A DNA stretch of 64,000 nt from a virus: the IMG/VR virus record IMGVR_UViG_3300029286_000029; one strand, given 5' to 3'. Every line of letters starts with the position of its first letter. The stretch's first letter is position 1. Shown piece after piece: positions 14,717 to 15,966 of the stretch. The notes below the pieces were generated by a model, which was given only the letters and a program-made list of their open reading frames with translations, made no database searches and was not told where the DNA came from. The position numbers and the translations under genes were made by a program.

Positions 14717-15126
14717 GCAACTTTATAAACAGAGAAGCCTTAATATATAACGTATTAGGGCTTTTTCTGAATTTTTTTAGAAATTTTTTTGATGAGCGCG
14801 TAATTTAGATACGCATTTTATTTCAAAACAACCCTCTTCATTACGCATTACTTAGAACGATTTGAAAAAAAGTTTCGGAATTACAGATAGGTTCGTTACC
14901 CATACTCTTCCCGCCCCTCGGGTCCTACCGAATCGACAACCCCCCGTTCCTTTGTTTTAAAACTAGGTTGTTAAGGTTTTATGCCTAGGGTCTCTTGGTC
15001 GTACAACGCTCTGTGAGGCGCTGTGAGCCCCGTGGCGCGTTAAAACTAGGTGTTTGAGTAGTTAGTGTCTAGTCAACACGCTATTCGCTTTATTAACAGT
15101 GTTTTTATTAGTTTAATTATAATCGT
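14717..15126. other. GC-rich, structured non-coding region immediately 3' of tRNA-Pro. It contains two copies of TTAAAACTAGGT and several GC hairpins.
   Basis: About 400 nt with no ORF and visibly higher GC than the rest of the window. Repeated motifs are at about 14958 and 15043. Hairpins include CCCGCCCCTCGGG and CGCTCTGTGAGGCG. Confidence 0.3.
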
Positions 15127-15546
15127 ATGGCTAAGTTAATTGTACGCAGTATTATCCAGAATCTCGAGAACAACCTGTCGCGGGTAACGCTCGATAAGGC
15201 GAACTTCGCCCTGGTCCAGTCTTCTTCGTTTGCTAAGAGCTCAAATGCTTATGCTCGACGCTTCCCTGAGGCTAAGCCAGGCTATGTCAATCTGCCGGTT
15301 GCCCTGCAATCAGACAAAGTTGTCAGTGCTGATGGCAAATGGTTCGATTTGTACACTATTGACGGGGTTAAGGTTTTCTATCGCTATTTGAAGAAAGAGG
15401 AAGCTCAGGACGGGTTTCGTCACTTCTGTGCAATAGCGACAGACGAAGCGAACAAGCGTTTCGAAGCTTTCGTGCCTGAGGCAGCGCCAGTCAACATGCT
15501 TTCCAATGTTGGTGGGTTTGTTACGCCTCGCGTTGCGGTAGCTTAG
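15127..15546 (+). CDS. Hypothetical protein of 139 aa with GC-rich codon usage (about 48% GC). It is probably horizontally acquired cargo of the tRNA-adjacent island.
   Basis: ORF track. Composition differs clearly from the surrounding AT-rich genes. Confidence 0.5.
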   Translation: MAKLIVRSIIQNLENNLSRVTLDKANFALVQSSSFAKSSNAYARRFPEAKPGYVNLPVALQSDKVVSADGKWFDLYTIDGVKVFYRYLKKEEAQDGFRHFCAIATDEANKRFEAFVPEAAPVNMLSNVGGFVTPRVAVA

Positions 15547-15966
15547 AGATGGTAGTGGGGGTGAAGGTGGGTACAAATCGAGTTCCGGATTTATCCGCAT
15601 CGCGCTTTTAGCCATCCCACATCACGCTTATCACACCTCGTCAATCTAATTTTTTCGTTAATCGAAATAAAGCGTTCATTGGCACCGTATAATAAGCCTC
15701 AATCTTGATTTATCAAGTAACGCGTATGATAGTATCGTATAATAAGACCTATCCGTAACAATAGGGGAAATGCCAAAACAAAGCATTTTCCCTTCCGTTA
15801 CGCTTCTTTTGCTATTAAGATAAGCTGTAACTAGGAAATAGGTATTAGAGTATAAGAGAAACTCATCACTTCCAACTCTAAGGCTGTAATTTAATTAACT
15901 ATTTAACCTTTCTATTTCCCGCTTAGAGCTTATCTTTCGTCCACTTAATAAATAATCAATAATCCA

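Follow-up and report, generated by a model that had tools for sequence, protein, structure and literature searches.

A conserved, strand-specific cassette at the head of a rightward operon in uncultured phages: a probable early control region with a small first gene

The 64,000-nt stretch of virus DNA analysed here, IMG/VR record IMGVR_UViG_3300029286_000029 (hereafter the window), belongs to an uncultured phage of about 100 kb, and our subject is the segment between its tRNA-Pro(UGG) gene (14644–14716) and an open reading frame (ORF) at 15967. From left to right this segment holds a terminator-like hairpin, an AT-rich stretch, a leader with short conserved blocks, a repeated motif and a hairpin designated H_B, a gene for a 139-aa protein, and a run of further hairpins that includes two copies of a two-hairpin element, P. 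We refer to the whole as the cassette. An earlier sequence-only reading regarded it as a GC-rich island inserted immediately 3' of the tRNA gene. Comparison with related phages leads us to a different view, to which we assign a probability of roughly 55%: that the interval is a native, clade-conserved control region together with the first gene of a rightward, presumably early, operon, and that it acts as plus-strand RNA.

We compared the window with 12 related phage loci, all uncultured, and in all 12 the cassette has the same position, at the head of a rightward operon and beside a conserved leftward structural module. In L008–L011 the homolog of the 139-aa gene is the first rightward gene, next to a leftward module encoding portal, terminase, a 1131-aa protein, HU and a methyltransferase, with the large protein 46% identical to that of the window; in L012 it directly follows an epimerase gene that is 61% identical to the window's. 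Homologs of a 1104-aa protein form about 80 clusters, with contigs of up to 112 kb; five further loci fetched through this protein, and L036, all have the cassette blocks at this site, and L036 and L138–L141 show the same placement. The order and orientation of the blocks are constant in the relatives, running from terminator and T-tracts through B3, B4, leader motifs, H_B and an A/T-rich block to the start codon, and the clade order 3' of the gene is GGGTT-N-GGA-N4-TCC (B7) followed by element P. Genes 3' of the cassette have nothing in common among the window, L008 and L012. The flanks, both flagged repeats and the small ORF are functional and do belong together, as first proposed, all being conserved and strand-specific in distant relatives.

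Table 1. Features of the cassette, in window coordinates
Feature	Position	Strand	Basis or remark
Intrinsic-terminator-like hairpin, T-tail into two T-tracts (block B1); upstream cassette border	14732–14791	+	terminator scan
AT-rich stretch (about 29% GC) with conserved ATTACGC (14840–14846) and GATTTGAAAAAAAG (14859–14872)	14792–14889	+	alignment A2
Blocks B3 (GGTTCGTTACCCATA, 14890–14904) and B4 (AATCGACAACCCCCCG, 14931–14946), then C-rich, G-poor tract	14890–14946	+	conservation
Leader motif copy 1, TTAAAACTAGGT	14957–14968	+	exact-match scan
Leader motif copy 2, TTAAAACTAG, into possible mini-ORF GTG TTT GAG TAG (15050–15061)	15040–15061	+	
Hairpin H_B, stem GTGT/ACAC, loop CTAGTCA	15065–15079	+	covariation
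A/T-rich block B6, TTATTAGTTTAATTATAATCGT, directly before start codon	15106–15126	+	alignment A2
Gene for 139-aa protein	15127–15546	+	new small family, members 114–152 aa
3' hairpin region with block B7, GGGTAC-N-GGATTTATCC (15569–15596)	15548–15616	+	fold z = -2.7
Element P copy 1: hairpin 1 TTTCG/CGAAA (15653–15667), AAAGCG, hairpin 2 GGC/GCC, loop with CGTATAATAA	15653–15700	+	
Element P copy 2: hairpin 1 CTTGAT/ATCAAG (15704–15717), AACGCG, hairpin 2 GATAG/CTATC, loop with CGTATAATAAG	15704–15753	+	
Strong hairpin (6-bp outer, 11-bp inner stem), then CTTCTTTTGC; terminator- or attenuator-like	15754–15812	+	
Long imperfect hairpin, about 25-bp outer stem, just before ORF at 15967	15817–15936	+	inverted repeat I1; z = -3.1

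The base composition of the segment differs from that first described. GC is raised only from about 14880 to 15700 (47%), and the interval presented as an island, 14717–15900, is only 42% GC rather than about 48%. Nor does the composition shift abruptly after tRNA-Pro, as had been stated: 163 nt of 29% GC (14717–14879) intervene, and the terminator-like hairpin and T-tracts lie inside them. Elsewhere in the window, 12300–14000 and 28000–30000 also have 42–50% GC. At the six loci measured, window included, flank GC is 0.39–0.52 compared with 0.26–0.37 further downstream, and the cassette area is enriched in CGCG and ACGCGT. We infer that the flanks are GC-raised in an AT-rich genome because the stems and the C-rich tract are under selection, and we see no sign of foreign origin.

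An insertion at the 3' end of tRNA-Pro, whether island, moron or satellite, is hardly credible, even though the segment adjoins a tRNA gene and its ORF has an outlying third-position GC content (GC3). The cassette is collinear, with GC-raised flanks, in relatives that have no nearby tRNA, as is the case for most of them; there is none within 10 kb of the homolog in L008 and L009, and the tRNA-Pro of L012 lies 2 kb off on the opposite strand. By the condition that the sequence-only reading itself set, collinearity and raised GC in the relatives and no occurrence elsewhere, the island is refuted. In the window, the terminator and the AT-rich sequence separate the tRNA gene from the GC rise. A repeat scan of 14600–16100 revealed no att-like direct repeat of the tRNA-Pro 3' end downstream, the only related pair being a 14-nt, 79% match to the D-arm region. 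The sequence-only reading correctly noted the absence of an integrase: neither integrase nor recombinase is present in or beside the cassette, where the sole inner ORF has no family match and is neighboured by genes for an HNH endonuclease and an epimerase and by small ORFs. Moreover, because the epimerase gene of L012 runs straight into the cassette, it is the HNH-type endonuclease ORF (211 aa, 14029–14664), which overlaps the first 21 nt of tRNA-Pro, and tRNA-Pro itself that constitute the extra DNA in the window. This segment is more likely to be mobile than the cassette, perhaps as a homing endonuclease of the free-standing kind.

Searches for the cassette in other contexts, which had been suggested as a check on its independence, covered phage and bacterial genomes (GenBank phages, IMG/VR, a library of 1.84 billion proteins, and GTDB genomes) and found none. 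A nucleotide search with the region and its flanks had no match among GenBank phages, and tblastn with the protein gave only a chance match there (E = 0.2). IMG/VR scans with the protein, the epimerase and alignment A3 returned nothing, and a protein-pattern scan of JGI metagenomes found no relatives. The DNA pattern TTTCAAAATNRGAGTCGCGG had 17 matches in JGI data, of which 16 have no relation to the cassette; a single high-GC sequence, read by eye as dnaA coding, is common to 10. The 14-mer ATCGACAACCCCCC gave mostly chance matches in IMG/VR, with two true relatives, L036 and L081.

The 139-aa ORF is a genuine gene and belongs to a new family. A word-indexed protein search with its product recovered only the product itself, and a full HMMER search against the 1.84 billion representatives recovered six proteins of 117–142 aa with 35–42% identity; a profile search added two more members, and context searches found further divergent ones (114–152 aa) in L036 and L138–L141. 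AlphaFold2 supplied with a seven-sequence alignment predicts a beta-hairpin, a long helix, a four-stranded meander and a short helix, with a predicted local distance difference test (pLDDT) score of 84.6 and a predicted template modelling score of 0.71; the model from the single sequence was unusable (pLDDT 37). The protein has no match in Pfam, PHROGs, NCBIfam, PADLOC, PDB or BFVD, and the family, its predicted fold and the three RNA motifs described below are matchless in these databases and Rfam. The description of the ORF as small and rich in GC codons is borne out, as its GC (0.493) and GC3 (0.529) are the highest of 55 ORFs (means 0.355 and 0.300; about 3 standard deviations out). GC3 of the ORF is 0.53 in the window, 0.47–0.52 in L012 and L015, and 0.31–0.34 in L008, L013 and L014; candidate explanations are a recent allele exchange between phages of differing GC, or constraints from RNA structure within the ORF. 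The ORF-free stretch of 400 nt in front of the gene is also real, with no ORF of at least 40 aa between 14720 and 15127 on either strand. No Shine-Dalgarno sequence precedes the gene; of the 58 genes in the window only one has the motif, and of 28 in L008 only two.

The upstream border of the cassette is a predicted intrinsic terminator, a GC hairpin at 14732–14766 followed by the T-run of TTTTTCTGAATTTTTTT. A hairpin followed by TTTTTTTG-N-AATTTTTT also stands ahead of the cassette in L008, L012, L014, L015, L138, L139 and L141. Within the leader, block B3 (clade form ACGTTTCCC) is present in 11 of the 12 relatives, and B4 (clade form AAATCGACAACCCCCC) with its C-rich tract in all 12. In a reading of alignment A8, a stem proposed by eye around the CGTTTCCC block is kept only in part, and the GG/CC mini-hairpin at this block never varies and is therefore uninformative. 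A long-range pairing between the C-run of B4 and the G-run before B7 was suggestive in the window and L013 but inconsistent, and was dropped. The hairpin for which there is comparative evidence in the leader is H_B, which occurs once per genome and once in the window. Its loop, CTAGTC(C/A), is invariant, and is carried on five different stems in six loci; 80.6% of the cells are paired compared with 47% in shuffles, and the covariation score of 0.93 (0.26 in shuffles) was reached by none of 500 shuffles.

Between B4 and H_B lies the first of the two repeats that had been flagged. TTAAAACTAGGT has exact copies at 14957 and 15040, 83 nt apart (first given as about 85), and no other in the 64 kb; the repeat is conserved in the clade and confined to the cassette. 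In relatives the motif takes the form AAAACTA[TG]GT or AAACTATTTTTATG, with one to four copies per locus and unrelated GC-rich hairpins between them; in L140 and L141 it directly follows B4. The 10-mer AAAACTA[TG]GT is restricted to the leader and to the gene strand in the window, L140 and L141. In L138, L140 and L141 every copy leads into an ATG and a putative mini-ORF of one to six codons (such as ATG TTT GVG TAG/TAA, ATG TAT ATG TAG/TAA or ATG TAG) in which the stop alternates between TAG and TAA; similar units stand in relatives at the place of the possible mini-ORF of window copy 2. These AAAACT-led mini-ORFs could be an array of minigenes or upstream ORFs, or the ATGTA repeats may instead serve as promoter elements of the phiEco32 gp36 type. 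The sigma factor gp36 of phiEco32 recognises a -10 element AATGTA (PMC12276001), which the leader motif resembles, and by this likeness the repeats may be tandem promoters.

The region 3' of the gene begins with B7, which occurs once, as GGGT-N(8–22)-GGA-N4-TCC, in 10 of the 12 relatives. Element P follows and contains the second flagged repeat, CGTATAATAAG, with exact copies at 15686 and 15736 (first placed at about 15684 and 15738) and none elsewhere in the window; this repeat too is clade-conserved, strand-specific and found only in the cassette. P with both hairpins is likewise restricted to the cassette and the gene strand, and occurs nowhere else in the window. Both of its hairpins covary. 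For hairpin 1, tested on only the seven copies with 5-nt loops, all 35 cells are paired with compensatory changes in all five pairs, and the score of 0.91 (0.31 in shuffles) was reached by none of 500 shuffles. For hairpin 2, whose registers were set by eye and whose loops were trimmed, 91% of cells are paired compared with 56%, and the score of 1.02 (0.27 in shuffles) was again reached by none of 500. We had considered CGTATAAT as a sigma-70 -10 box, a proposal that was abandoned because this sequence sits in a covarying hairpin loop.

Beyond P, the hairpin at 15754–15802 is strong (-22.1 kcal/mol, z = -5.4) and its T-rich tail, CTTCTTTTGC, gives it the form of a predicted intrinsic terminator. 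Three single-nucleotide polymorphisms (SNPs) in contig L003 (15759 C>T, 15770 A>G and 15789 T>C) keep its pairing through G-U or G-C, and do so only when read as plus-strand RNA. The long hairpin just before the next ORF has comparable counterparts 3' of the gene in L008 (z = -3.7), L014 (z = -5.0) and L015 (z = -7.8), with structure kept and no sequence shared between the window's and those of the relatives. The hairpins of about 140 nt in L008 (11100–11240) and L014 (1545–1690) are strongly conserved in sequence between these two loci and have weak matches to plant microRNA-precursor models; they could represent an RNA that is processed, or else a site for RNase III. In the scan with Infernal-type covariance models that had been proposed, only tRNAs passed in the window and relatives; the next-best matches had E of at least 0.13, far under gathering scores, and none for GOLLD, ROOL, transfer-messenger RNA (tmRNA), ribozymes or riboswitches came near its threshold.

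An alternative explanation for these repeats and hairpins is that they function in DNA, as an origin, a packaging site or a terminal-repeat boundary, with the repeats as protein sites and the hairpins as cruciforms. We regard this as improbable. It would suit the location at a divergence point between modules, the A/T tracts beside GC-rich repeats, the enrichment in CGCG and ACGCGT, and the palindromes GGA-N4-TCC in B7 and, perfect, TTATCCACA in L008. Contig ends provide a further point: nine metagenome contigs carry an identical ORF, the seven retrieved are the same phage (98–100% identity), and six of these end within 15758–16048. These ends are scattered, however, and not at one coordinate as a terminal repeat would give, and they suggest an assembly break caused by the hairpins or strain-level variation downstream; one 664-nt contig spans only 14903–15566. 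Every motif is strictly strand-oriented and the G-U-compatible changes fit RNA, the repeats are 83–300 nt apart, unlike contiguous iterons, and a gene for a DnaD-like initiator and a GC-skew minimum lie at about 42 kb.

An autonomous structured RNA of about 0.5–1 kb, serving as a protein or ribosome sponge, an RNA polymerase-modifying RNA or a minigene array, and perhaps accompanied by a small protein whose ORF merely lodges inside it, is an explanation we consider unlikely. The block order is fixed, and yet the ORF precedes B7 in eight loci and follows it in L139 and L141, and in L141 also follows a copy of P, so that the modules behave as a scaffold with variable ORF position; these variants are at L139 5229–5880 and L141 2620–3310, both on the minus strand. 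The variable motif copy number and the mini-ORFs with alternating stops are also in keeping with such an RNA. However, no Rfam family matches it, copy 1 of the window has no comparable mini-ORF and copy 2 requires a GTG start, and the copies may be tandem promoters given their likeness to the gp36 element (PMC12276001). A precedent is offered by Cellulophaga phage phi14:2, in which a small early-region ORF, g005, is flanked by two intergenic stretches of about 690 nt, both reported to be strongly transcribed in the rightward direction from early infection on (10.1101/2020.03.07.982082). Homology with g005 and its flanks was rejected, the proteins being non-homologous with no motifs in common, and one of the phi14:2 RNAs, that of the second stretch, is a tmRNA: ARAGORN calls a tmRNA gene with tag peptide GSSVQKLAMVA at the g005–g006 junction (L137, NC_021806, 4031–4500). 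A related proposal, possible but tentative, is that a modular RNA with three kinds of covarying hairpin with invariant loops and the copy-variable UAAAACUAUG opening mini-ORFs forms, with the new-fold protein, a regulatory or host-takeover system rather than ordinary untranslated regions (UTRs); it would then be an undescribed RNA, conserved at the head of the early operon in some 80 uncultured phages, each of about 100 kb, that make up one clade.

A copy-variable repeated RNA motif upstream of a small protein is also what might be expected of a type III toxin-antitoxin-like or retron-like module for defence or addiction, both of which had been raised in the sequence-only reading. Our results make this very improbable. 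The repeats are neither tandem nor identical, there is no array of 34–36-nt units upstream nor any TRF-type array, and the copies are at least 83 nt apart in unrelated sequence. The 139-aa protein matches no ToxN, AbiQ, CptN or TenpN family or fold, and the PADLOC search gave no match. Pfam and PHROGs searches detected no reverse transcriptase domain in the cassette ORF or in the nearby ORFs scanned (12303–21002 on the plus strand and 7238–11986 on the minus strand), and no retron RNA was matched in Rfam. The fixed position at the operon head throughout a clade of lytic-type phages also argues against such a module.

The control-region reading to which we gave roughly 55% is consistent with the shared position in all 12 loci, the GC-raised flanks, the covariation of H_B and P, the strand-bound motifs, the plus-strand pairing of the SNPs, the unshared genes downstream, the long hairpins conserved in structure, and the protein family with its HMMER relatives and confident model. 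According to this reading, the terminator after tRNA-Pro would insulate the cassette from upstream transcription, and a promoter of its own, probably within the AT-rich 14767–14889, would start the rightward transcript. This would begin with a leader of about 250 nt containing conserved single-stranded blocks, two copies of UAAAACUAGGU split by GC-rich hairpins, and the hairpin with the CUAGUCA loop, and would continue into the 139-aa protein as its first gene. A GGA-N4-UCC element, the two copies of P, the terminator-like hairpin and the RNase III-type long hairpin would follow, with hypervariable small ORFs coming last. The RNA modules may act in cis in ribosome loading, factor binding, processing, and termination or read-through, and together would set the amount of the first protein and the reach of transcription into the variable genes.

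Several observations weigh against this interpretation. The terminator and promoter scan found no sigma-70 match in 14792–14889, and the Bacteroidota promoter motif TAnnTTTG is absent from all leaders and from the cassette. RNAalifold on MAFFT alignments of the leaders, including B3–B4, gave no consensus pairs, and the conservation there is of sequence only. The upstream 260 nt fold no better than dinucleotide shuffles (z = +0.17), so that of the structured non-coding DNA originally described, structure upstream is backed only by comparison with relatives, and for one hairpin, while the downstream 420 nt do fold better than shuffles (z = -3.7). In pairwise alifold comparisons the energies of the plus and minus strands are similar and do not separate them; with the exception of a few G-U pairs, cruciforms in DNA would account for the hairpins equally well, and the manual steps in the test of P hairpin 2 have been noted. 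The position of the ORF behind B7, and behind P in L141, implies that the modules are not simply the 5' and 3' UTRs of that gene. Finally, the high GC3 of the ORF is restricted to the window, L012 and L015.

The window has no nucleotide match among GenBank phages, and no cultured phage has a terminase more than 28% identical to the one it encodes. It encodes an SU10-type portal, a large terminase, HU-like, ParB-like, SbcC-like and DnaD-like proteins, helicases, GroEL (28562–30181), RecA (47911–48921), and a phiEco32-type COOH-NH2 ligase (21651–23285), together with a peptide-deformylase-like protein (56128–56688) and an SPFH/Band 7 protein (37833–38687). Several of the genes for GroEL, RecA, the deformylase-like protein, the SPFH/Band 7 protein and the ligase also have raised GC3 (0.40–0.45). 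There are three more tRNA genes, for Trp (11551–11623), Tyr (13153–13235) and Asn (28015–28090), and a second HNH gene (11609–11986, minus strand) overlaps that for Trp. NCBI places the contig of one relative in a bin labelled Candidatus Shapirobacteria (P0018), a possible pointer to the host.

These results remove the lead of a tRNA-targeted mobile element, and leave a phage clade seen only in metagenomes that keeps an elaborate strand-specific, RNA-type array and a protein of unmatched fold at the expected start of early transcription. Should the modules control read-through or translation, Rfam would gain new cis-regulatory RNA motifs, and there would be a way into early gene control in phages whose hosts apparently make no use of Shine-Dalgarno sequences. 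Being conserved, the cassette could also anchor searches for the adjoining variable accessory genes, possibly with anti-defence roles.

Parallels can be drawn with several known systems. The bar minigenes of phage lambda read AUG AUA UAA, and the putative mini-ORFs here resemble them as units of two or three codons within a presumed early transcript of a phage; they differ in that the motif may have another role, that of a promoter element comparable to the AATGTA of phiEco32 gp36 (PMC12276001). The type III toxin-antitoxin systems ToxIN, CptIN and TenpIN share with the cassette a copy-variable RNA motif upstream of a small protein on one strand, but in the cassette the repeats are not tandem 34–36-nt units.

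The early region of phage T7 has promoters A1–A3, gene 0.3, and RNase III sites R0.3 and R0.5. Like it, the cassette places several hundred non-coding bases with repeats at the operon head, followed by a small first gene and long inter-gene hairpins, although here there are no sigma-70 promoter matches and RNase III cleavage is suggested by stem length only. The isoelectric points of the family span 4.8 to 9.3, and its members are thus not acidic DNA mimics like Ocr.

The early leftward leader of lambda consists of pL, nutL (boxA and boxB), gene N and terminator tL1; in a nut site, a boxA consensus is accompanied by a boxB hairpin that is bound by the arginine-rich N, with read-through of downstream terminators. 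The cassette has a similar plan, with a small-protein first gene, a long leader in which a linear block is followed by a hairpin with a conserved loop, and terminators before accessory genes. The likeness to nut is probably one of architecture only, a linear block and then H_B. No boxA was found here, and there is no similarity in sequence or fold; N is a disordered arginine-rich peptide, whereas the 139-aa protein is predicted to be a folded alpha/beta domain, with no arginine-rich motif seen in the family alignment. Early-operon leaders of phages that combine regulatory hairpins with a small first gene are a kind of element already known, and in its overall arrangement the cassette resembles the pL-nutL-N-tL1 region of lambda and the early region of T7.

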